Position numbers and translations under genes: made by a program. A stretch of DNA of 14,084 nt from a virus (lineage: Duplodnaviria; Heunggongvirae; Uroviricota; Caudoviricetes), in IMG/VR virus record IMGVR_UViG_2663762908_000002; one strand, 5' to 3'. Every line of letters starts with the position of its first letter. Positions within the stretch are counted from its first letter, which is position 1. Below, piece by piece: positions 1,691 through 14,084 of this stretch. A model generated the notes under the pieces. The model saw only the letters and a list, made by a program, of their open reading frames with translations. It was not told the origin of the DNA and did not search any database.

Positions 1691-2740
1691 TTAGGCCAGC
1701 ACACCAATTGCCAGCGCGTGATCGATAAATCGAAAAATCAGCTCCAGTTGGGAGCCATACTTCTCTTCAAATGCCACGGTATCCGTATGCAGTTCGTCGT
1801 GATGCTTTCTGCATAAAGGCAACACAAAAAGATCATGTGCTTTGGTTCCCATTCCGCCCTGCCCGTGACCAATCAGATGATGCGGATCGTCGGCTGGCAT
1901 ACCGCAGCAAGCACACGGCTGTGTCTTCACCCAGCGAGTGTATTTCTCCTTAACCCAGCGGCGACGTTTAGGTAGCTTCATGAAAGATTCCGGAGACTCA
2001 GGATCAACGGTGATGCTTACCACCGTCCTTTCCTGTAGTGGGTGTTGTTCCTGGTGGGCGTGAGGCAACAGTGCAAGATTTTTTGTGCGCTGTTTCAATA
2101 TGCTGGTGGCGGTCTGCTCTCCCGGTACGATGTCGCTTTCGCGGTACATTGAGCGGATTTTTTCCGCTGGTAATCCCAGCGAGCGACGTAATACCGCTTC
2201 AGGTAGCGCATCCGCCACCTGATTTCGGACCGCCCACCAGGATAATTCAGCCAGAGATAATTCACGCTCCTGCGTACCGCTTATTGCGTGACCGATGACG
2301 TCAATCATCCATGCTGACAGGTTTTGATGAGCAAGTTGCTCGAGTGATTCGGATGTCTGGTCACGCAGCTGGTTGTCGCAGTGCCAGCACAACACCATTG
2401 CGCCGGTACCATAACGGTGAATGACGGTTTCACTGTGGTGATAATCGCCGTGTGGCCACTGGCAGGATTTAATATGGCGCAACAGCCAGTCAGACAATGC
2501 ACCAGCACCACCAGCAGCACGAATCACCCGTGCGTTACTGAAAAACGGCAGCAATGTTTTGTCTTCCACCAGCGGCTGGCGAACGGCAGGAACGACCCCG
2601 GACGGCAGATTACGCATGCTTTTCGGTTCCGGCTCCACCAGTACCCGGGTATTGTGGAATACCGGCATGGATTCACGGCCCGGCTTAACGATCACCACCC
2701 CGAGTTCCGGTACCAGAACAGGTCGAAGTAATACCCGCAC
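1691..2740 (-). CDS. YdfU-like prophage protein with a DUF968-type Cys/His-rich C-terminal region, 349 aa
   Basis: ORF with GTG start at 2740 preceded by GGAGG 4 nt upstream, immediately after the upstream gene stop. The C-terminal Cys/His cluster, the length and the position next to hok match my recollection of Qin YdfU. TAA stop is the first triplet after the gap. Confidence 0.7.
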   Translation of the reverse strand: MRVLLRPVLVPELGVVIVKPGRESMPVFHNTRVLVEPEPKSMRNLPSGVVPAVRQPLVEDKTLLPFFSNARVIRAAGGAGALSDWLLRHIKSCQWPHGDYHHSETVIHRYGTGAMVLCWHCDNQLRDQTSESLEQLAHQNLSAWMIDVIGHAISGTQERELSLAELSWWAVRNQVADALPEAVLRRSLGLPAEKIRSMYRESDIVPGEQTATSILKQRTKNLALLPHAHQEQHPLQERTVVSITVDPESPESFMKLPKRRRWVKEKYTRWVKTQPCACCGMPADDPHHLIGHGQGGMGTKAHDLFVLPLCRKHHDELHTDTVAFEEKYGSQLELIFRFIDHALAIGVLA

Positions 2741-2741
2741 G

Positions 2742-3020
2742 TTACCTCCAGATCCGTTGCTGGTATGTGCGGGATGAACGCGGTGGGCGTTCGGAGTAAG
2801 GGAGTCTGACTGAGATTATCCAGTGACGGTAGTCGAGGCTAAGAGCTTTCTTAACCTCGTATCCGCGCCTGCGGTAACACTGAATTATCCATTCCGCCTG
2901 CTCTTCAGTGCATGGAGGATGCTGGAACCAGTCTGATTTGAATGCGTGAAAACGCCGTCCGCACCTACTGGCAAAGACGGCAGAATCATTAGAATTGTGT
3001 AATTTGGTATCGTGCGCCAT
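2742..3020 (-). CDS. small prophage protein at the position of Rem in Qin, 92 aa from ATG 3020 (start uncertain)
   Basis: ORF between hok and the ydfU-like gene. The longer ORF-track version starts with GTG at 3149, has no SD and would span the terminator hairpin at 3090-3119, so the internal ATG at 3020 is preferred. Identity with Rem not verified. Confidence 0.4.
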   Translation of the reverse strand: MAHDTKLHNSNDSAVFASRCGRRFHAFKSDWFQHPPCTEEQAEWIIQCYRRRGYEVKKALSLDYRHWIISVRLPYSERPPRSSRTYQQRIWR

Positions 3021-3089
3021 CGGTTGTCTCTGCTGGCGCAGCAGGTGCCAGTTGTTCAGGCTGGCGTGCGAATTGTAAACCAGAATGCC

Positions 3090-3119
3090 AGGAAAAAACA
3101 AAACCCGCCGAAGCGGGTT
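3090..3119 (-). terminator. Rho-independent terminator downstream of hok
   Basis: Perfect 7-bp stem AACCCGC / GCGGGTT (3102-3108 with 3113-3119, 4-nt loop) followed on the minus strand by UUGUUUUUU (plus 3092-3101). Confidence 0.6.
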
Positions 3120-3187
3120 ACGTGCGGGTGCGTTGAGGATGCCTGACACATCAGAGGTGGCGAGGGATTTCTCCCCCGCCAGGTCTC

Positions 3188-3343
3188 TTACTCCTCAGGT
3201 TCGTAAGCTGTGAAGACAGCGACCTCCGTCTGGCCGGTTCGGATTCGTACCTCGCAGAGGTCTTTCCTCGTTACCAGTGCCGTCACTATGACGGTTAAAC
3301 AGATGACGATCAGGGCGATTAACATCGCCTTTTGCTGCTTCAT
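3188..3343 (-). CDS. hokD: Hok-family type I toxin, 51 aa (not in ORF track; below size cut-off)
   Basis: Hand translation of the minus strand gives MKQQKAMLIALIVICLTVIVTALVTRKDLCEVRIRTGQTEVAVFTAYEPEE, which matches HokD/RelF as I recall it; AAGGAGA SD upstream; TAA stop. Confidence 0.88.
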   Translation of the reverse strand: MKQQKAMLIALIVICLTVIVTALVTRKDLCEVRIRTGQTEVAVFTAYEPEE

Positions 3344-3399
3344 AGCCTGCTTCTCCTTGACCTTTCGGTCCGTAAGAGGCTAATCTCTATGTGTCGCAT
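3340..3399 (-). CDS. 19-codon upstream ORF ending in an ATGA overlap with the hok start (possible mok-like coupling ORF)
   Basis: Minus-strand ATG at 3399, reading MRHIEISLLRTERSRRSRL, with TGA stop overlapping the hok ATG. No SD checked; speculative. Confidence 0.25.
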   Translation of the reverse strand: MRHIEISLLRTERSRRSRL

Positions 3400-3601
3400 A
3401 GATATGGCCTCAGATTAATGTTAAGCGTCTTGCAGGACGCGTAATGTTAACTGGGGCTTTTCTCTATCTGCCTTTTGGTGTTCATGCCTGAGACAGATAG
3501 CCTCAAGCACCCGCAGTCATTCTACTTAACTAAGATTTCCCCGCAAACCGTTTTTGTCCGGCACAGTAAATATCCAACTAAACCAATGGCGTTCGCTGTA
3601 T

Positions 3602-3781
3602 TTACCGCCAGTATTCAATGCACATGACCGCCATGAACACCCCTAAAAAAAGGGCATTTATATATCCAAATATTAATATCAAAACATCAACTTTTTCCAT
3701 ATACCTTGCTGTGAAGATGATGGGCATACATGATACGAACAACCAGAACGCAACAAACAAAAACTGCAATGCGTTTTTCAT
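3602..3781 (-). CDS. small hydrophobic protein, 59 aa, two predicted transmembrane segments
   Basis: ATG at 3781 preceded by AGGAGG 5 nt upstream; translation MKNALQFLFVAFWLFVSCMPIIFTARYMEKVDVLILIFGYINALFLGVFMAVMCIEYWR; AT-rich gene and flanks. The ORF-track start at 3820 lacks an RBS. Confidence 0.5.
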   Translation of the reverse strand: MKNALQFLFVAFWLFVSCMPIIFTARYMEKVDVLILIFGYINALFLGVFMAVMCIEYWR

Positions 3782-4010
3782 TATTCCTCCTACAATCAAT
3801 GTGCAATTACATTTAAACACACCTCAATTTGGCCGGACATATAAATATCTAAACCAGAAAAAATCACTTACATAGCGTTACAAACTCTTTAGTCTAAATA
3901 TTCATCGTAAAACATTCCCCATACTTATCAGCCCGTTCTGCGCCAGGTAGCTCATTGCCTTATCTGGGAATCTGTAATCAGGTTTCCGGATGCTGGTGGA
4001 TTTTCGCGTT

Positions 4011-5123: not shown

Positions 5124-5546
5124 TCACAGTACCGCCTCCTGAAAATTACCCTGATAGAAAGCCAGTACACGCTGCATAGCTTCACTCTTCCGGCACTCGC
5201 GACAGATTATGTTTAGGCGACTGTCGTAGCGACGTATTTCTCCGTCAGGTGATGACCAGATAAGGTCCGGATCAACCACAGCAGGTTTCTTCACCTTTGC
5301 CCTCGAGAGTTTTTTGCGGGCGTTTTGCCAGTCCTTACGCGCCTGTTCAGAGGGGAATAACCCGTAGCCGGAGTTGTATACATCGCCGCTGGCAACCAGC
5401 TCTCTTGCGAGAACGCTCATCAGATATCTTGTCGCACCTGTCTTGACTTCCAGTTGCCGTAACGTCTCACGCCCACTCTGGCGTACGAGTTCAACAACCT
5501 GCCCTTTAATTTTTTCTCGCTCTTCTTGTGTAAAAACTTTTGCCAC
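5124..5546 (-). CDS. hypothetical prophage protein, 140 aa
   Basis: GTG start at 5546 with AGGAGGG 3 nt upstream; sits directly downstream of the replication initiator gene. Confidence 0.55.
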   Translation of the reverse strand: MAKVFTQEEREKIKGQVVELVRQSGRETLRQLEVKTGATRYLMSVLARELVASGDVYNSGYGLFPSEQARKDWQNARKKLSRAKVKKPAVVDPDLIWSSPDGEIRRYDSRLNIICRECRKSEAMQRVLAFYQGNFQEAVL

Positions 5547-5586: not shown

Positions 5587-6657
5587 TTACCCCCTGAAGC
5601 CCGGTGGAATTTCGGTATCCGGTTCAGAAATATGATTCACACAACGCTGGTTGTTCGTGCCGCTTACCGGGAGCAACCAGGGGTTCTCAAAATTCCGGTC
5701 CGGTCCAAAAAACGTCGTCGCTCGCTGAACAAATTCCGTTCCCGTTTTCCCGGTAGCCGCCAAGTATCTTGCGTAACGCCTCACGCCATCCAGCATGGCC
5801 TCTGGTGGCACCCCCTCGCGTAATCTGGCCTTCCAGGCACTGAAAGCGGATTTCTTCGGGTTTGCTCCGGCACGCAACGGGTACTCCCGCCAGACCTGTT
5901 CGAACACATCCGGATAATCCACTCGTCCCACAGACAGCCCGGTGTTTTCCGGGACTACCCGATCGGCTTCCCGCTGAATGGCGGAATCGGCTTCAGGCTG
6001 CTGCAGTTGGTGTGATTGCTCCGGCCTTGGGGTCATCACCTGCTGCACAGCGCCCGAATCGGCTTTCAGCGCATACGCTGAATCGGCTTCCGGTGTCGTG
6101 CCTGCTGGCTGACCAGGATTGACGGTCTGAACATCCCCTGCCTGGTTCGTGGCGTTTTTTACGCCATGGACCATAGTGTTTTGATCTTCTTGATCTGTAT
6201 CTTTATCTGTATCTTTATCTGTCGTGACTCGTCGTGACATGTGCGTGACATTTCGTGACGCGCCGTGACAATCGCCATTTTGTTCCCGCTTTCTTTCCCT
6301 CTCTCGCTGCGCCCTCTTGCGCTCTGCCGGAGATTTTGCGGTTTGCGAAATATTGCCGTTGTCCTCTTTCAGCACCTGGCGTTTTTCCCATCCAGTGATT
6401 AAATCACCATCAAGTACCCGCCCCTGCATCGTCTGCAAAATTGAATCAATTACCTCTTCTGTCACGTCGAGCGCACTTGCCAAATCTTCTGTCGTGACAT
6501 CAATGTGACCTCGCGTGACATTTCGTGACGCGCTCACCAGGAGGTGGATATACACTGCCATCACTGTTGCAATTGGCTGCCCTGACACCCTGGCAATTGT
6601 TCGCCACTTAGGGTCATTTGGCATGTCATGCCATAATCTGAGCCAGGCGTTAGCCAT
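5587..6657 (-). CDS. phage replication initiation protein (O-like), 356 aa
   Basis: ATG at 6657 with GAGG 5 nt upstream. The N-terminus (MANAWLRLWHDMPNDPKWRTIARVSGQPIATV...) and a C-terminal motif block resemble phage replication-initiator families as I recall them; internal iteron-like repeats support an embedded origin. Confidence 0.7.
   Translation of the reverse strand: MANAWLRLWHDMPNDPKWRTIARVSGQPIATVMAVYIHLLVSASRNVTRGHIDVTTEDLASALDVTEEVIDSILQTMQGRVLDGDLITGWEKRQVLKEDNGNISQTAKSPAERKRAQRERERKREQNGDCHGASRNVTHMSRRVTTDKDTDKDTDQEDQNTMVHGVKNATNQAGDVQTVNPGQPAGTTPEADSAYALKADSGAVQQVMTPRPEQSHQLQQPEADSAIQREADRVVPENTGLSVGRVDYPDVFEQVWREYPLRAGANPKKSAFSAWKARLREGVPPEAMLDGVRRYARYLAATGKTGTEFVQRATTFFGPDRNFENPWLLPVSGTNNQRCVNHISEPDTEIPPGFRG
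6193..6222. repeat. tandem repeat, 12-bp unit ATCTGTATCTTT, 2.5 copies, AT-rich, next to iterons
   Basis: Direct reading; two GATC sites lie immediately upstream (6183-6186, 6192-6195). Confidence 0.8.
6223..6269. repeat. iteron-like array: 5 copies of CGTGAC at 10-11 bp spacing (putative phage origin)
   Basis: CGTGAC at 6223, 6233, 6244, 6254 and 6264; helical periodicity; inside the replication initiator gene. Confidence 0.55.
6494..6533. repeat. second iteron-like array: 4 copies of GTGAC at 10-11 bp spacing
   Basis: GTGAC at 6494, 6505, 6515 and 6525; a 21-nt exact copy (6513-6533) of 6243-6263. Confidence 0.5.
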
Positions 6658-6728: not shown

Positions 6729-7154
6729 TCAATGTACTGCCACAGCATTTCCTGCCGGGCCACCACGGTTCATCTGATTGAAACCGGCGATTGCCACTGC
6801 GACAAAATCATCAGCGTCTCTCACCAGTCGCTCCCGCGTCTCCACCAGCTCCCGAAAATAAGCTGAACTGTGGCTGCGCATTCTGGCCACCAGCAAAGGT
6901 GGCATTGCCTTTTCGATCGCTGGTAACAACGCCTGAATTTTTTCAACTGCATCAGGGGTGTCTTTCTCTACCCAGCGGAAAATTTTCTGGGTATTGCGAG
7001 CCAGGGCTTCCGGATGGCTGTCGTCATACAGTTCCGGGAACGTCATTCCCAGCTCGAAATACGCTTTGGTAATTTTCGCAGCCGGTACTTTTTCGCCGTC
7101 CGGATGCGCCCAGGCATTCATCGCCATGCGGATGTGTTCATGCTTGATTTTCAT
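6729..7154 (-). CDS. YdaT-like protein (second gene of the cro operon), 141 aa
   Basis: ORF with ATG overlapping the cro-like stop (ATGA at 7151-7154); position and size match Rac ydaT; family assignment from memory only. Confidence 0.55.
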   Translation of the reverse strand: MKIKHEHIRMAMNAWAHPDGEKVPAAKITKAYFELGMTFPELYDDSHPEALARNTQKIFRWVEKDTPDAVEKIQALLPAIEKAMPPLLVARMRSHSSAYFRELVETRERLVRDADDFVAVAIAGFNQMNRGGPAGNAVAVH

Positions 7155-7381
7155 GAATCCCCCCCTTGGTTAGAAGGCGGATTATGATCAGAACCGGGAA
7201 TGACAACCGTCGGTATGTGTAACTCATATTTGAGCGCCCCGGCAGTGACTGCCTGAATTAGCAACGCCCATTTCCACGGAACCTCTTCCCCCCACATGCT
7301 GACTGTGGTTTTTGACGTTCCTAGAGCTGCGGCTGTTTTAACAACTCCGCCAAAATAGCCTAATACTTCTGATTTTTTCAT
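7151..7381 (-). CDS. Cro-like HTH regulator, DicC/YdaS family, 76 aa
   Basis: ATG at 7381 with GGAG 6 nt upstream; the sequence pattern (LGYFGG...KTAAALG...VSMWGEEVP) parallels DicC as I recall it; divergent from the repressor gene. Confidence 0.75.
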   Translation of the reverse strand: MKKSEVLGYFGGVVKTAAALGTSKTTVSMWGEEVPWKWALLIQAVTAGALKYELHIPTVVIPGSDHNPPSNQGGDS

Positions 7382-7472
7382 GAGTCGCTCCATAAAACTG
7401 AACGTCAAAAGTTTAATAATCAAAACCAAAGAAAGTCAAGAAACAAAACCATCTGTGTTTTAAAATCAAAAC
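7382..7472. promoter_or_regulatory. divergent immunity control region (PR-like and PRM-like promoters plus operator)
   Basis: Plus-strand -10 TAAAAT (7461-7466) about 7 nt before the cI ATG; minus-strand -35 TTGACT (complement of 7434-7439) with an AT-rich -10 candidate; palindrome TGTTTT-N6-AAAACA at 7456-7473. Confidence 0.55.
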
Positions 7473-8111
7473 ATGAGCAAGCAAACTATATCTGAACGCA
7501 TAACCCAACGTATGCATGCGCTAAACCTGAAAGGCAAAGACCTTGTCAATGGCACTGGCGCATCAAAAGGCTCCGTAAGTCAATGGATGAACGGTGGAGG
7601 AGCGCCGTCCTCGCGTTACATAAGTTCACTGGCAAAAATATTGAAAGTAAACGAAAATTGGCTTCTTAATGGAGGAGAGTTAAATACAGGTGATTCGCTT
7701 GATCTATCTTTACCGCCGATAAAAACGGTTCCGCTACTATCACTTCAGCAGGCAGCAAGCTGGAGTGATTATATGAAAAATTCCTCAATAACCTCTTGTG
7801 TGCAGCTTGTCGGAGAAATCCCGGTCAATACCTTTGCAGTTGTTCTAGAGAGTGACAGTATGTCAACATCTGGTGGGGGAGTTTCCATCCCAAATGGTTC
7901 AACAGTTTTTGTTGATCCCGATCGAACCGTACAACCAGGAAATATTGTCCTTGCCTTACCCAAAGGGACCACAACACCTGTCATTCGTAAACTGGAGATA
8001 GAAGGGCCGGATATTCTTTTAGTCCCCACGAATCCTCGCTACCCTTCAATTATGCTGGATGATCTATCTTGCATATTGGGCGTATGCTTTAAAATTCAAC
8101 AAGATATTTAA
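7473..8111 (+). CDS. CI-type prophage repressor (N-terminal HTH, C-terminal S24 LexA-like peptidase domain), 212 aa
   Basis: The C-terminal region aligns by eye with lambda CI and LexA autocleavage domains (ESDSMS...VFVDPD...IRKLE...LVPTNPRYPSI); divergent from the cro-like gene. Confidence 0.9.
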   Translation: MSKQTISERITQRMHALNLKGKDLVNGTGASKGSVSQWMNGGGAPSSRYISSLAKILKVNENWLLNGGELNTGDSLDLSLPPIKTVPLLSLQQAASWSDYMKNSSITSCVQLVGEIPVNTFAVVLESDSMSTSGGGVSIPNGSTVFVDPDRTVQPGNIVLALPKGTTTPVIRKLEIEGPDILLVPTNPRYPSIMLDDLSCILGVCFKIQQDI

Positions 8112-9277: not shown

Positions 9278-9335
9278 TTTCTGGTGACGTTTGGCGGTAT
9301 CAGTTTTACTCCGTGACTGCTCTGCCGCCCTTTTT
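9278..9335 (+). ncRNA. dicF: DicF small RNA (Hfq-dependent cell-division inhibitor, acts on ftsZ mRNA)
   Basis: Sequence TTTCTGGTGACGTTTGGCGGTATCAGTTTTACTCCGTGACTGCTCTGCCGCCCTTTTT matches DicF as I recall it, including the intrinsic terminator hairpin and U tail; lies between ydfC and dicB as in Qin. Ends approximate. Confidence 0.8.
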
Positions 9336-9881: not shown

Positions 9882-9973
9882 AACAGTTCCGTAATAAATA
9901 TCCGGTTTCATTCTTATATGCCAGCAATGGCAGGGATTTGTTCATCCTTAAATCTGTCATGAGGTTAAAACAA

Positions 9974-12445
9974 ATGAGTAAAGTCTTTATTTGCGCCGCT
10001 ATTCCTGACGAACTGGCAACAAGGGAAGAAGGCGCTGTGGCTGTAGCCACAGCCATTGAAGCTGGCGACGAACGCCGTGCTCGAGCAAAATTTCACTGGC
10101 AATTCCTGGAACATTATCCGGCTGCTCAGGACTGCGCTTATAAATTTATTGTCTGCGAGGATAAACCTGGCATACCCCGCCCTGCCCTCGATTCATGGGA
10201 TGCTGAATATATGCAGGAAAACCGCTGGGATGAGGAGTCTGCTTCTTTTGTCCCGGTTGAGACTGAATCCGATCCGATGAACGTCACTTTTGACAAGCTG
10301 GCCCCTGAAGTACAGAACGCTGTCATGGTTAAGTTCGACACATGTGAAAACATCACCGTTGATATGGTTATTAGCGCACAGGAATTGTTGCAGGAAGACA
10401 TGGCAACATTCGACGGACATATCGTTGAAGCGTTGATGAAAATGCCAGAAGTTAACGCCATGTATCCGGAGCTTAAGTTGCACGCCATTGGGTGGGTTAA
10501 GCATAAATGTATTCCTGGTGCTAAATGGCCCGAAATTCAGGCAGAGATGCGCATCTGGAAAAAACGTCGCGAAGGTGAACGCAAGGAAACCGGAAAATAC
10601 ACGTCTGTTGTTGATCTCGCCCGCGCCAGAGCCAATCAACAGTACACTGAAAATTCAACAGGAAAAATCAGCCCGGTCATTGCTGCCATTCATCGCGAAT
10701 ACAAGCAGACATGGAAAACACTGGATGACGAACTGGCCTACGCTCTCTGGCCTGGTGATGTGGATGCCGGAAACATTGACGGCAGCATCCATCGCTGGGC
10801 AAAAAATGAAGTTATCGACAACGACCGCGAAGACTGGAAGCGTATCTCGGCATCAATGCGCAAACAGCCTGATGCCCTTCGCTACGACCGCCAAACTATT
10901 TTTGGCCTTGTCCGTGAGCGTCCGATCGACATTCACAAAGATCCCGTAGCACTGAACAAATATATCTGCGAATACCTGACGACAAAGGGCGTGTTTGAGA
11001 ATGAAGAAACAGACCTGGGCACTGTTGATGTTCTCCAGTCATCAGAAACACAAACTGATGCAGTGGAAACTGAGGTATCTGATATCCCAAAAAATGAAAC
11101 CGCGCCGGAAGCTGAACCATCTGTAGAGCGTGAGGGGCCGTTCTATTTCCTCTTCGCAGATAAGGACGGAGAAAAATACGGTCGCGCAAACAAACTTTCT
11201 GGTCTGGATAAGGCACTGGCTGCTGGCGCCACTGAAATCACAAAAGAAGAATATTTTGCCCGAAAAAATGGCACATACACGGGCTTACCGCAAAATGTAG
11301 ATACCGCTGAAGATTCAGAACAACCAGAGCCGATAAAAGTTACCGCTGACGAAGTAAACAAAATTATGCAGGCAGCCAATATCATCCAGCCTGACGCCGA
11401 TAAGTTGCTTGCTGCATCACGTGGTGAATTTGTTGAAGGGATTAGTGACCCGAATGATCCGAAATGGGTTAAGGGGATCCAGACCCGCGATTCTGTGAAC
11501 CAGAACCAGCATGAATCGGAACGGAACTACCAAAAAGCGGAACAAAACAGCCCAAATGCGTTACAAAACGAGCCAGAAACGAAACAGCCTGAATCAGTGG
11601 CGCAACAGGAAGTGGAAAAAGTCTGCACCGCCTGCGGTCAGACCGGCGGCGGCAACTGCCCTGATTGTGGCGCGGTAATGGGCGACGCAACATACCAGGA
11701 AACATTCGATGAAGAGTATCAGATTGAAGTTCAGGAAGATGATCCGGAGGAAATGGAAGGCGCTGAACATCCACACAAGGAGAACACTGGCGGCAATCAG
11801 CATCACGATAGCGATAATGAAACTGGCGAGACGGCAGATCACTCAATTAAGGTGAACGGTCATCAAGAAATCACATCCACCAGCAGGACGTGTGACCATC
11901 TAATGATCGACCTTGAAACCATGGGAAAAAATCCTGATGCCCCGATCATCTCAATAGGTGCAATATTTTTCGATCCGCAAACCGGAGATATGGGACCGGA
12001 ATTTAGTAAGACTATCGATCTGGAAACTGCTGGCGGAGTCATTGATCGGGACACCATTAAATGGTGGCTTAAGCAATCACGCGAAGCGCAATCTGCCATT
12101 ATGACCGATGAAATCCCGTTAGATGATGCACTGTTACAATTGTGGGAATTTATCGACGAAAACTCCGGTGAATTTTTTGTTCAGGTCTGGGGAAATGGAG
12201 CCAACTTCGACAACACGATTTTGCGCCGTTCATACGAACGGCAGGGGATCCCCTGCCCGTGGCGTTACTACAACGATCGCGATGTACGCACAATCGTTGA
12301 GCTGGGGAAAGCCATAGACTTCGATGCCAGAACGGCTATTCCATTCGAAGGTGAGCGCCATAATGCACTTGATGACGCCCGTTACCAGGCAAAATACGTT
12401 TCAGTTATCTGGCAAAAACTGATCCCGAGTCAGGCTGATTCTTAA
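9974..12445 (+). CDS. prophage exonuclease-VIII-like protein, 823 aa, with a C-terminal DEDDh 3'-5' exonuclease domain and an internal CxxC...CxxC zinc ribbon
   Basis: ATG at 9974 with GAGG 9 nt upstream; the C-terminus carries DLET (Exo I), NFD (Exo II) and HNALDD (Exo III); zinc ribbon CTACGQTGGGNCPDCG. The N-terminal region corresponds to the truncated K-12 ydfE as I recall it. Confidence 0.85.
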   Translation: MSKVFICAAIPDELATREEGAVAVATAIEAGDERRARAKFHWQFLEHYPAAQDCAYKFIVCEDKPGIPRPALDSWDAEYMQENRWDEESASFVPVETESDPMNVTFDKLAPEVQNAVMVKFDTCENITVDMVISAQELLQEDMATFDGHIVEALMKMPEVNAMYPELKLHAIGWVKHKCIPGAKWPEIQAEMRIWKKRREGERKETGKYTSVVDLARARANQQYTENSTGKISPVIAAIHREYKQTWKTLDDELAYALWPGDVDAGNIDGSIHRWAKNEVIDNDREDWKRISASMRKQPDALRYDRQTIFGLVRERPIDIHKDPVALNKYICEYLTTKGVFENEETDLGTVDVLQSSETQTDAVETEVSDIPKNETAPEAEPSVEREGPFYFLFADKDGEKYGRANKLSGLDKALAAGATEITKEEYFARKNGTYTGLPQNVDTAEDSEQPEPIKVTADEVNKIMQAANIIQPDADKLLAASRGEFVEGISDPNDPKWVKGIQTRDSVNQNQHESERNYQKAEQNSPNALQNEPETKQPESVAQQEVEKVCTACGQTGGGNCPDCGAVMGDATYQETFDEEYQIEVQEDDPEEMEGAEHPHKENTGGNQHHDSDNETGETADHSIKVNGHQEITSTSRTCDHLMIDLETMGKNPDAPIISIGAIFFDPQTGDMGPEFSKTIDLETAGGVIDRDTIKWWLKQSREAQSAIMTDEIPLDDALLQLWEFIDENSGEFFVQVWGNGANFDNTILRRSYERQGIPCPWRYYNDRDVRTIVELGKAIDFDARTAIPFEGERHNALDDARYQAKYVSVIWQKLIPSQADS

Positions 12446-12769: not shown

Positions 12770-12803
12770 CTAAAAGCCACACTAACTAATGAGAGAAATT
12801 GAA

Positions 12804-14084
12804 ATGAAATATCCGACAGGCGTGGAAAACCATGGAGGGAAATTACGTATCTGGTTTGTTTATAAAGGCGTAAGAGTCAGGGAAAACCTGGGGGTTCCTG
12901 ACACAGCAAAAAACAGGCGCGTTGCAGGTGAGCTACGCGCCTCTGTTTGTTACGCAATAAAAACTGGTGTTTTCGACTATGCAAAACAGTTTCCCTCCTC
13001 ACGCAATCTGGAAAAATTTGGTGAGACCCGACAAGATTTAACCATAAAAGAACTGGCTGAAAAATTTCTGGCACTGAAAGAAACTGAAGTCGCAAAAACA
13101 TCACTCAACACATACCGTGCCGTCATCAAAAATATCCTGAGCATAATCGGTGAAAAAAATCTTGCCTCATCGATTAATAAAGAAAAATTACTGGAGGTTC
13201 GTAAAGAGCTACTGACTGGATACCAGATCCCCAAAAGTAACTATATTGTTACACAACCAGGGAGATCGGCTGTAACTGTAAATAATTACATGACAAATCT
13301 TAACGCCGTGTTCCAGTTTGGTGTTGATAACGGTTACCTGGCAGATAACCCGTTTAAGGGGATCTCGCCATTAAAGGAATCAAGAACCATTCCGGATCCT
13401 CTTTCGCGGGAGGAATTCATCCGTCTTATCGATGCGTGCAGAAATCAGCAAGCCAAAAATTTATGGTGTGTTTCTGTTTATACTGGCGTTCGCCCTGGTG
13501 AGCTGTGTGCACTTGGATGGGAGGACATAGATCTGAAAAATGGAACAATGATGATCAGGAGAAATTTAGCAAAAGACCGTTTCACGGTACCAAAAACACA
13601 GGCGGGAACCAATCGGGTCATTCATCTTATTAAGCCAGCAATCGACGCTCTCCGGAGTCAGATGACATTAACGAGACTGAGCAAAGAGCATATCATTGAT
13701 GTTCACCTCAGAGAGTATGGCAGAACAGAAAAACATAAATGCACCTTTGTTTTTCAACCTGAAGTGTCAGCGAGAGTAAAAAATTATGGTGACCATTTTA
13801 CCGTTGACTCAATAAGGCAGATGTGGGACGCAGCGATAAAACGTGCCGGACTCCGCCATCGAAAATCATATCAGTCGAGACATACTTATGCCTGCTGGTC
13901 GCTGACAGCTGGTGCTAACCCGGCATTTATAGCAAACCAGATGGGCCATGCAGATGCGCAAATGGTATTTCAGGTATACGGAAAATGGATGTCTGAAAAC
14001 AATAATGCACAGGTAGCTTTGTTAAATACACAGTTAAGCGAGTTTGCCCCAACCATGCCCCATAACGAAGCAATGAAAAATTAA
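12804..14084 (+). CDS. tyrosine site-specific recombinase (phage integrase), 426 aa
   Basis: Conserved catalytic residues in order: R in VRPGEL, H-x-x-R in SRHTYA, GHA, Y in VYGKW; N-terminal arm-binding-type region. The start at ATG 12804 is preferred over 12789; TAA stop is the last triplet of the window. Confidence 0.9.
   Translation: MKYPTGVENHGGKLRIWFVYKGVRVRENLGVPDTAKNRRVAGELRASVCYAIKTGVFDYAKQFPSSRNLEKFGETRQDLTIKELAEKFLALKETEVAKTSLNTYRAVIKNILSIIGEKNLASSINKEKLLEVRKELLTGYQIPKSNYIVTQPGRSAVTVNNYMTNLNAVFQFGVDNGYLADNPFKGISPLKESRTIPDPLSREEFIRLIDACRNQQAKNLWCVSVYTGVRPGELCALGWEDIDLKNGTMMIRRNLAKDRFTVPKTQAGTNRVIHLIKPAIDALRSQMTLTRLSKEHIIDVHLREYGRTEKHKCTFVFQPEVSARVKNYGDHFTVDSIRQMWDAAIKRAGLRHRKSYQSRHTYACWSLTAGANPAFIANQMGHADAQMVFQVYGKWMSENNNAQVALLNTQLSEFAPTMPHNEAMKN

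Follow-up and report, generated by a model that had tools for sequence, protein, structure and literature searches.

A probable replication origin with two iteron arrays inside the initiator gene of a Rac/Qin-like lambdoid prophage of Escherichia coli

Introduction

Where does a lambdoid prophage with a single recognisable replication gene initiate its DNA replication, and can this gene itself contain the origin? The question is raised by a stretch of 14,084 nucleotides (nt) from the Caudoviricetes record IMGVR_UViG_2663762908_000002 of IMG/VR (referred to as the window, meaning the stretch at its full length), in which an initiator gene on the minus strand carries two clusters of short GTGAC repeats. 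An initial annotation, made from the sequence alone, had proposed that these clusters form, together with an AT-rich tandem repeat, a phage origin embedded in the initiator gene. According to our analysis, the segment at about 6143-6533 is probably the vegetative origin of a Rac/Qin-like lambdoid E. coli prophage, located within the coding sequence of its own initiator. This assignment is based on the architecture of the sequence, selection at the DNA level, matched changes of the iterons, the A/T tract and the gene context. From this, we infer how the initiator may bind, how the DNA may be melted, how the helicase may be recruited and what role the second repeat array may play.

Results and discussion

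Iteron arrays in the window

Since the initiator gene is located on the minus strand, the iteron core reads (T)GTCACG on the coding strand. The repeats described in the initial annotation were all recovered, comprising five CGTGAC motifs in its first cluster (here array B) and four GTGAC motifs in its second cluster (array A), each at the position and spacing given there (Table 1). The 21-mer GCGTGACATTTCGTGACGCGC was found exactly twice, at 6243 and 6513, and the repeated peptides SRNVTRGH and SRNVTHMSRRVTT, which had been attributed to the repeats, are both present in the translation of the initiator gene. In addition, array A comprises a fifth, inverted iteron, located 33 bp beyond its fourth direct copy.

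Both arrays lie in one gene at a distance of approximately 190-260 bp, with array A upstream. Array A corresponds to codons 43-55, which encode the end of helix 1 and the next loop of the DNA-binding domain, and its inverted iteron corresponds to the turn preceding the third helix. Array B corresponds to codons 130-144 within a disordered linker. For the second cluster, a location in the linker is excluded, as its codons belong to the folded DNA-binding domain.

When the window was simulated 2000 times with a first-order Markov model, the highest numbers of GTGAC on one strand were 3 within 50 bp and 5 within 320 bp, compared to 5 and 9 in the actual sequence. A chance origin of the repeat clusters is excluded. 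Throughout the whole genome of the E. coli phage Tritos (46 kb), no further runs of the motif occur besides the two clusters.

Selection at the DNA level

The search for the family of the N-terminal domain (N-domain) yielded 797 clusters at E <= 1e-3, and a scan of one genome per GTDB species yielded 49 loci from Gamma- and Betaproteobacteria and a few other groups. Loci with a GTCAC core are designated type I, and 20 type-I genes with a locus GC content of 31-66% were combined in a gap-free codon alignment.

The positions of the repeats within the gene proved to be highly conserved. In more than 20 loci, ranging from 34% GC (Entomomonas) to 69% GC (Pseudothauera), GTCAC was found at gene nt 129, 139, 149 and 160, inverted at 193, and in 3-5 copies near nt 387-430, and Pseudomonas phage phi1 showed the same pattern. 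The GTGAC of the inverted site was present in 18 of 22 type-I genes, with V65 encoded by GTG in 18/20. Without exception, array B of the type-I loci contained 3-5 copies spaced by 10 or 11 bp and touched an A/T tract. For the 22 type-I genes, spacings of 10 or 11 bp accounted for 62/68 in array A and for 58/58 in array B. The two clusters had been described as unusual in comparison with the single array of lambda. While lambda indeed possesses one array only, the double arrangement is no oddity of this phage but a conserved hallmark of the family.

The codon usage in array A indicates that these nucleotides are constrained beyond the encoded protein. Six residues are encoded by a single codon in 20/20 genes (V47 GTC, T48 ACG, G50 GGT, H51 CAC, V54 GTC and T55 ACG), and two further codons are nearly fixed (A43 GCG in 18/20, S44 TCA in 19/20). 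The third-position entropy of the invariant four- and six-fold codons in array A amounted to 0-0.57 bits, compared to 1.35-1.97 bits for the invariant residues P13, P16, T20, P28, V32, A60, G79, V81 and G89 elsewhere (Mann-Whitney p = 4e-4). The third positions of the spacer residues R45 and R49 varied freely. Moreover, both arrays contain the GTCAC core in each of the three codon phases, as expected from a spacing of 10 or 11 bp, which argues for selection on duplex DNA and disfavours selection at the peptide level. The number of iterons changes in steps of 21 bp (two iterons, 7 codons), which can be seen in the protein alignment: array B comprises 5 copies in the window compared to 3-4 in most relatives, and the 6 copies of array A in E. 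albertii correspond to a 7-residue insertion.

In an all-against-all comparison of the flanking open reading frames (ORFs), no ORF other than the initiator was shared by the full set of 20 type-I loci; a cI-like repressor came next, with 11. The C-terminal domains and the downstream genes vary from locus to locus and include a DnaT-like domain, a DnaB helicase, a large 'P' protein, a DnaC-like protein, or nothing. The simplest reading of these patterns would be that the N-domain and the two arrays represent one cis/trans module. Altogether, the comparative evidence supports the proposal of an origin inside the initiator gene, in which the iterons lie along a single face of the DNA next to an AT-rich element.

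A/T tract and palindrome

Array B is directly followed by an A/T-rich tract, which on the coding strand consists of (GATAAAGATACA) x2.9 and encodes DKDTDKDTD (codons 145-158, in the disordered linker). The 12-bp tandem unit reported before the first cluster was recovered by Tandem Repeats Finder as TCTTTATCTGTA x2.9 at 6188-6222 with 95% matches, and the two GATC sites were located at 6183-6186 and 6192-6195. The segment 6179-6218 constitutes the easiest-melting 40 bp of the initiator gene (z 2.8, top 0.4% of the window).

A (N)AGATAAAGATAAAGA-like sequence was found directly after array B in every type-I locus. In 21/21 type-I loci, the 33 bp past the last iteron showed 61-85% AT, even at the locus of 69% GC, compared to 34-59% AT for the codons of the N-domain (Wilcoxon p = 6e-5). 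The codon choice in the tract was biased accordingly, with GAT:GAC at 69:4 vs 105:97 (Fisher p = 4e-12) and AAA:AAG at 56:5 vs 56:71 (Fisher p = 6e-11).

Beyond the tract, the inverted repeat listed in Table 1 showed a DNA fold of -10.9 kcal/mol (z -5.5). Lambda ori has a palindrome at the corresponding position. The inverted repeat is also kept (3043-3071), with a compensatory swap from GCGT/ACGC to GCGA/TCGC, in Shigella phage 75/02 Stx, although this phage has only the C-terminal half of the initiator gene in common with the window. Many loci of the family contain GC-rich palindromes (e.g. CCCCCC…GGGGGG) 25-65 nt past the last iteron. Since the family-wide statistics for palindromes are suggestive but uneven, the palindrome is not claimed as a feature of the family.

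Subfamilies with other cores

Apart from type I, three further cores were observed, each in two arrays. The core CGAACGC was found in Janthinobacterium, Massilia, Collimonas, several metagenome-assembled genomes (MAGs) and a Manatee Spring viral genome, GTAACG(C) in Enterobacter hormaechei, Pantoea, Marinobacter and Sphingomonas, and GCAACGC in Ralstonia phage Firinga, at a protein identity of only 38%. Within each locus, both arrays carry the matching core, and the positions in the gene are kept across the subfamilies. For the CGAACGC group, the cores again lie in three codon phases and variation is confined to the spacer.

The initiator module is also present in isolated phages of Pseudomonas (Detrevirus), Aeromonas and Ralstonia. 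In the GenBank record of the Detrevirus phi1, the initiator gene with both GTCAC arrays (3001-3896 of the locus) carries no annotated coding sequence, and other Pseudomonas phage records show the initiator gene split into two hypothetical proteins. In a Serratia MAG locus and a Pantoea locus, the N-domain is followed by a putative T5orf172 or GIY-YIG-type segment (YVYYV…GISRNPWAR) at gene nt ~330-700; these loci contain periodic repeats with a CTACG core.

The initiator protein

The initiator protein matches phrog_3729 ('replication initiation protein') end to end (E 1.7e-256), and GenBank/NCBI annotators name it 'phage replisome organizer'. Other records name the gene 'hypothetical protein', 'replication protein O' or 'primosomal protein I' or overlook it altogether, and no origin is annotated. 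Pfam returned no family for the protein at E <= 0.01, and at E <= 1 only the sub-threshold hits Phage_rep_org_N and HTH_Crp_2.

An AlphaFold2 model was calculated from an alignment of 16 sequences (mean predicted local distance difference test (pLDDT) 59.5, poor outside the N- and C-domains). The N-domain (~aa 1-95) was predicted as winged-helix-like, with helices at 29-45, 56-63 and 67-77, a hairpin at 78-87 and the topology H-loop/strand-H-H-hairpin. In blocks of 10 residues, the pLDDT reached 83-93 over most of aa 11-90 and 67 at aa 41-50. The model further predicts a basic helix (aa 110-126), the disordered linker (132-245) and a helical C-terminal domain (248-316). The model is no more than suggestive of a winged-helix fold of the N-domain.

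A comparison of GTCACG-type with CGAACGC-type proteins was used to locate residues that follow the iteron type. In the folded domain, only residues 46, 47, 48 and 51 are type-specific, all of them in the loop encoded by array A, and the remaining type-specific residues lie in the basic segment aa 101-115. The core may be read either by the basic segment or by the array-A-encoded loop. In the latter case, array A would represent a self-referential specificity module, in which the recognised nucleotides also encode the recognising part of the initiator. We regard this as a rather unlikely possibility, but one with consequences: a single gene conversion between the arrays could switch the specificity of site and reader together, which would explain the matching cores in both arrays and would allow new origin specificities and replication incompatibility groups to arise in one step.

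The last 24 residues of the initiator (…QRCVNHISEPDTEIPPGFRG) match positions 156-179 of 179 of NCBIfam NF002770, and this DnaT tail was also the only match in a search of the initiator against PDB sequences (chains 6aep, 2ru8, 9zbt). The DnaT domain PF17948 was detected in 4/16 members of the family but not in the window protein, which matches only the last 24 residues of DnaT. Phages HannyBb and 75/02 Stx possess initiators with the same tail but with N-domains unlike that of the window. The tail looks like a portable module contacting host replication proteins. The C-terminal domain of DnaT docks on PriA/PriB and forms filaments on single-stranded DNA in the preprimosome (PMC13377028). The DnaT-like tail suggests a link to host helicase loading or the restart primosome.

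The initiator gene of HannyBb (2688-3653 of the locus) comprises five GGTCAAAATG-like repeats at a spacing of 23 bp in linker codons (gene nt 352-445), with the full 10-mer in three and the TCAAAA core in all five. The principle of an in-gene origin seems to recur with different N-domains in the same gene slot. In the window, a further repeat was observed in the disordered linker, where four plus-strand copies of GAATCGGCTT at 5959-6093 (minus-strand gene nt 569, 593, 665 and 689) encode PEADSA. As these copies all share one codon phase (spacing 24, 72, 24), the repetition seems to concern the peptide, where it may form a short linear motif. In 75/02 Stx, two copies of the PEADSA type are kept.

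Proposed mechanism and alternative explanations

Based on these observations, the following course of initiation can be proposed. After induction, transcription from the early-right promoter would lead to synthesis of the initiator, whose winged-helix-like N-domain would bind the 7-bp core (T)GTCACG at four direct and one inverted site in array A and at five sites in array B. Since the sites recur once per helical turn, the protomers would stack on one face of the DNA. The filament on array B would abut the (GATAAA)n-type A/T purine tract, which would act as the unwinding element, with the palindrome beyond. Recruitment of host DnaB/DnaC would then depend on the disordered linker and on the C-terminal domain, which ends in the DnaT-like tail; since the phage encodes no helicase, loader or primase, this recruitment would have to be accomplished by the C-terminal part. 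Array A, bound by the same protein, would most likely loop to array B in a higher-order complex, or would limit the supply of initiator or the firing of the origin.

Several observations weigh against this interpretation. The literature searched gives no mapped origin and no initiator-iteron complex for this initiator family, and a search for a described origin in the family found none. Other parts of the window are more AT-rich than the A/T tract. A Foldseek search of the PDB with the AlphaFold2 model gave no significant match (best E 0.74), the hits being mostly MarR, ArsR and GntR proteins, and the predicted recognition helix (aa 67-77) does not track the iteron type. For some distant homologues, in the loci of a Microcystis phage and of Ventosimonas and Entomomonas MAGs, a simple detector found no arrays. 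Finally, the distance between the arrays varies from 249 to 339 bp (last copy of A to last copy of B), which disfavours a strictly phased loop and weakly favours a role of array A that is independent of phasing.

An alternative is that only array B and the A/T tract form the origin proper, and that array A serves as a regulatory operator within the gene, where bound initiator would act as a roadblock to transcription of its own gene, or would be titrated or handcuffed so that re-initiation is limited. This is possible, though we consider it the less probable view of array A. Array A is located upstream of array B without an AT tract of its own, it has an extra inverted site where array B has none, and the spacing between the arrays is not helically conserved. 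Furthermore, lambda, SPP1 and TP901-1 each function with one repeat region (PMC7466680, PMC6316719), and the additional distal iterons of Stx phages, though bound weakly, are nevertheless required (PMC7466680). On the other hand, array A is conserved as strongly as array B and its core always matches, which is compatible with a structural or a regulatory role.

It is very unlikely that the arrays are bound by another protein, such as a host factor or a ParR- or omega-like protein, and serve partition, transcription control or exclusion. Direct-repeat arrays at helical-turn spacing are typical of ParR-parC centromeres and of the heptad operators of the omega repressor. However, no par gene or other gene for a DNA-binding protein accompanies the arrays, the initiator being the sole ORF shared by the 20 loci, and beside the arrays there is an AT-rich tract with a palindrome, an arrangement also seen in lambda ori. 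A conserved host factor is further disfavoured by the different iterons in related hosts (GTCACG in E. coli, GTAACG in Enterobacter and Pantoea).

An action of the conserved nucleotides in RNA, as mRNA structure, small RNA target or translational control, is even more improbable. Synonymous conservation alone cannot tell selection on DNA from selection on RNA, and base pairing between the inverted copy (nt 193) and a direct one is conceivable. Direct repeats, however, cannot pair with each other, the 10/11-nt periodicity and the A/T tract fit the geometry of duplex DNA, Rfam contains no family matching at the arrays, and the core changes between the subfamilies while periodicity and positions stay. 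The least probable explanation, which we give hardly any weight, is that the repeats are a by-product of repeated peptides (SRNVT, DKDT) or of a low-complexity linker without a function as DNA: they do yield repeated peptides, the linker is predicted to be disordered, and R49 and G50 are conserved as amino acids across the iteron types, pointing to some protein-level constraint in the loop, but the synonymous sites of the core are invariant over 31-66% GC where those of other invariant residues are nearly saturated, the 10- or 11-bp spacing is no multiple of 3 and places the core in every codon phase, and the A/T tract keeps AT-rich codons against the genomic bias. The readings as peptide repeat, RNA element and centromere were rejected, and an origin within the initiator gene remains the preferred interpretation.

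Gene context and other features of the window

The initiator gene is preceded by genes resembling cro and cII and by a divergent cI-type repressor gene (Table 1), which places it in the position of lambda O in the early-right operon. Since the counts from promoter and terminator scans did not exceed those of shuffled sequences, the assignment of the pR-like promoter rests on its position. A transcript from this candidate would cross cro, the cII-like gene and the origin.

Table 1. Coordinates of the proposed origin, the initiator gene and neighbouring features in the window
Feature	Position	Strand	Remarks
DUF977 / LygF / 'Ren-like' gene	5124-5546	minus	directly downstream of the initiator gene
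Initiator gene	5587-6657	minus	356 aa, ATG at 6657, GAGGTGA ribosome-binding site upstream
DnaT-like tail	5590-5661	minus	codons 333-356, mimics the C-terminal tail of E. coli DnaT (VNHISEPDTEIPPGFRG)
Inverted repeat	6143-6173	none	13-bp stem, 5-nt loop; 9 bp beyond the A/T tract
A/T-rich purine-skewed tract	6183-6222	minus	two GATC sites; candidate DNA-unwinding element
Array B, five direct iterons	6223-6269	minus	plus-strand CGTGAC at 6223, 6233, 6244, 6254, 6264; spacing 10, 11, 10, 10
Array A, fifth (inverted) iteron	6460-6466	plus	plus strand TGTCACG; coding strand CGTGACA, gene nt 192-198
Array A, four direct iterons	6488-6533	minus	plus-strand GTGAC at 6494, 6505, 6515, 6525; spacing 11, 10, 10
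cII/YdaT-like gene	6729-7154	minus	between the cro-like gene and the initiator gene
P22-Cro-like gene	7151-7429	minus	first in the leftward gene order
pR-like promoter candidate	7410-7439	minus	TTGACT-18-TAAACT, upstream of cro; consensus scan only
S24 cI-type repressor gene	7473-8111	plus	divergent from cro

The replication region of the window is 96-99% identical to that of the E. coli phages vB_EcoS-640R1, Tritos and Evi. For Tritos, a viable phage whose genome is complete, the identity amounts to ~98.7%, and the initiator is the sole replication gene among 56 annotated features. No gene for a helicase, helicase loader, primase, or P- or DnaC-like protein was found downstream of the initiator gene in the window, and none is annotated in Tritos. 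Shigella phage 75/02 Stx, which has the same C-terminal domain as the window initiator, possesses a DnaC-like gene. The origin segment was present in 2036 of 5426 complete E. coli genomes (~37%).

Further features were observed elsewhere in the window. On the minus strand, a hok/sok-type toxin-antitoxin locus at 3188-3512 comprises the Rfam sok RNA (3341-3512, 106.7 bits) and an ORF of 51 aa (3188-3343); the corresponding region of Tritos contains a gene annotated HokD. The small RNA DicF was identified on the plus strand at 9279-9330 (Rfam, 76.7 bits). In Tritos, DicF is followed by dicB and ydfD-like genes, a RecE-like exonuclease VIII, an excisionase and an integrase, and two long ORFs of the window (9938-12445 and 12789-14084) match these post-DicF genes. 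Such a gene set from DicF to integrase is characteristic of prophages of the Qin/Rac type. A run of 10 N at 1681-1690, representing masked bases or an assembly gap, lies just before a DUF968/YdfU-like ORF (1691-2740, minus strand).

Significance of the replication module

The replication module is widespread in E. coli and other proteobacteria, largely unannotated, and conserved in its architecture of twin arrays. The analysis provides a precise map of the proposed origin, four natural specificity classes and a clear case of overlapping constraints from protein coding and DNA sites. With the DnaT-like tail, it also offers a lead as to how a phage with a single replication protein may recruit the host helicase. 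For annotation, a simple rule can be derived: two arrays with a core of 5-7 bp and a spacing of 10-11 bp, one near gene nt 130 and the other near nt 390, with (GATAAA)n after the latter.

Comparison with known origins

Origins inside the gene of their own initiator are established for several phages. Lambda ori is located inside gene O (PMC7466680), SPP1 oriL inside gene 38 (PMC6316719), and the origins of TP901-1 and Tuc2009 inside their own replisome-organiser genes (PMC8965321). By analogy, the element described here would work like lambda ori, SPP1 oriL and TP901-1 ori, although the protein falls outside their families in every membership test applied. At least three phased tandem repeats, an adjacent AT-rich element and an initiator encoded in cis, with cores matched between the two arrays, are present, as is characteristic of the class of iteron origins.

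The layout agrees with that of lambda in several respects. In both cases, the origin lies in the initiator gene, in the linker between an N-terminal DNA-binding and a C-terminal recruiting part, the initiator gene follows cro and cII in the early-right operon, and the order along transcription is iterons, AT-rich tract and palindrome. In lambda-type variants of Stx phages with 6 iterons, two additional iterons correspond to 13 additional aa (PMC7466680), compared to a step of two iterons and 7 aa in the family described here. There are also clear differences. The lambda iterons of ~19 bp are internally symmetric and bound by O dimers, whereas the core in the window comprises 7 bp in direct repeats every 10-11 bp, and the second array in codons of the folded DNA-binding domain has no equivalent in the single array of lambda. 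Instead of a P-type loader gene, a DUF977 / LygF / Ren-like gene is located downstream. The parallel to lambda is supported for the embedding in the initiator gene. The protein is no homologue of lambda O, as no match to Phage_rep_O was obtained even at E <= 1.

SPP1 G38P resembles the proposed role of the window protein in that it binds direct repeats in its own gene beside an AT-rich unwinding element, and has two binding regions (PMC6316719). However, oriL and oriR of SPP1 are ~13 kb apart and each has an AT-rich element (PMC6316719), while the arrays of the window lie ~260 bp apart in one gene and only array B has an AT tract. Moreover, G38P contains Phg_2220_C, which the window protein does not, and SPP1 encodes its own loader and helicase. 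An alignment of the N-domain profile with G38P by hhalign gave a probability of 0.16%.

TP901-1 ORF13 and Tuc2009 Rep2009 bind regions rich in direct repeats in their own genes, which constitute the origins (PMC8965321). In TP901-1, the repeat region is single, lies mid-gene in an A-rich linker and has a spacing of ~15 bp; SPP1 likewise has one repeat region mid-gene. TP901-1 Rep consists of HTH_36 and DnaB_2, neither of which was found in the window protein, and its comparison with the N-domain profile gave an hhalign probability of 1.5%. The PHROG 'DnaD-like helicase loader' matches the C-terminal part of the window protein.

The N-domain (aa 5-125) aligns end to end with positions 1-119 of the Phage_rep_org_N profiles PF09681 and TIGR01714, with scores far below the curated cut-offs (12.7 vs 23.3 bits for Pfam, 15.4-18.5 vs 49.8 for TIGR01714). 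A kinship is possible, but distant at best and unconfirmed. The description of TIGR01714 mentions a low-complexity region that reflects direct repeats of the origin. Regarding Eru-type Stx-phage replication regions (PMC8044961), none corresponds to the initiator gene, and a literature search for Rac oriJ gave nothing relevant.

Two non-coding systems come close in geometry. The ori of staphylococcal pathogenicity islands (SaPI) comprises two sets of short iterons flanking an AT-rich region, outside the rep gene. In R1 parC, direct repeats of 11 bp are arranged in two sets of five, with one repeat for each turn of the helix, and are bound cooperatively along one face; parC serves as a centromere and is no origin. 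Compared to all these systems, the origin proposed here is distinguished by short cores packed one per helical turn, by a second array with an inverted fifth site in codons of a folded domain, by a conserved (GATAAA)n tract that at the same time encodes a DKDKD linker, and by a replication module of a single protein ending in a DnaT-like tail.

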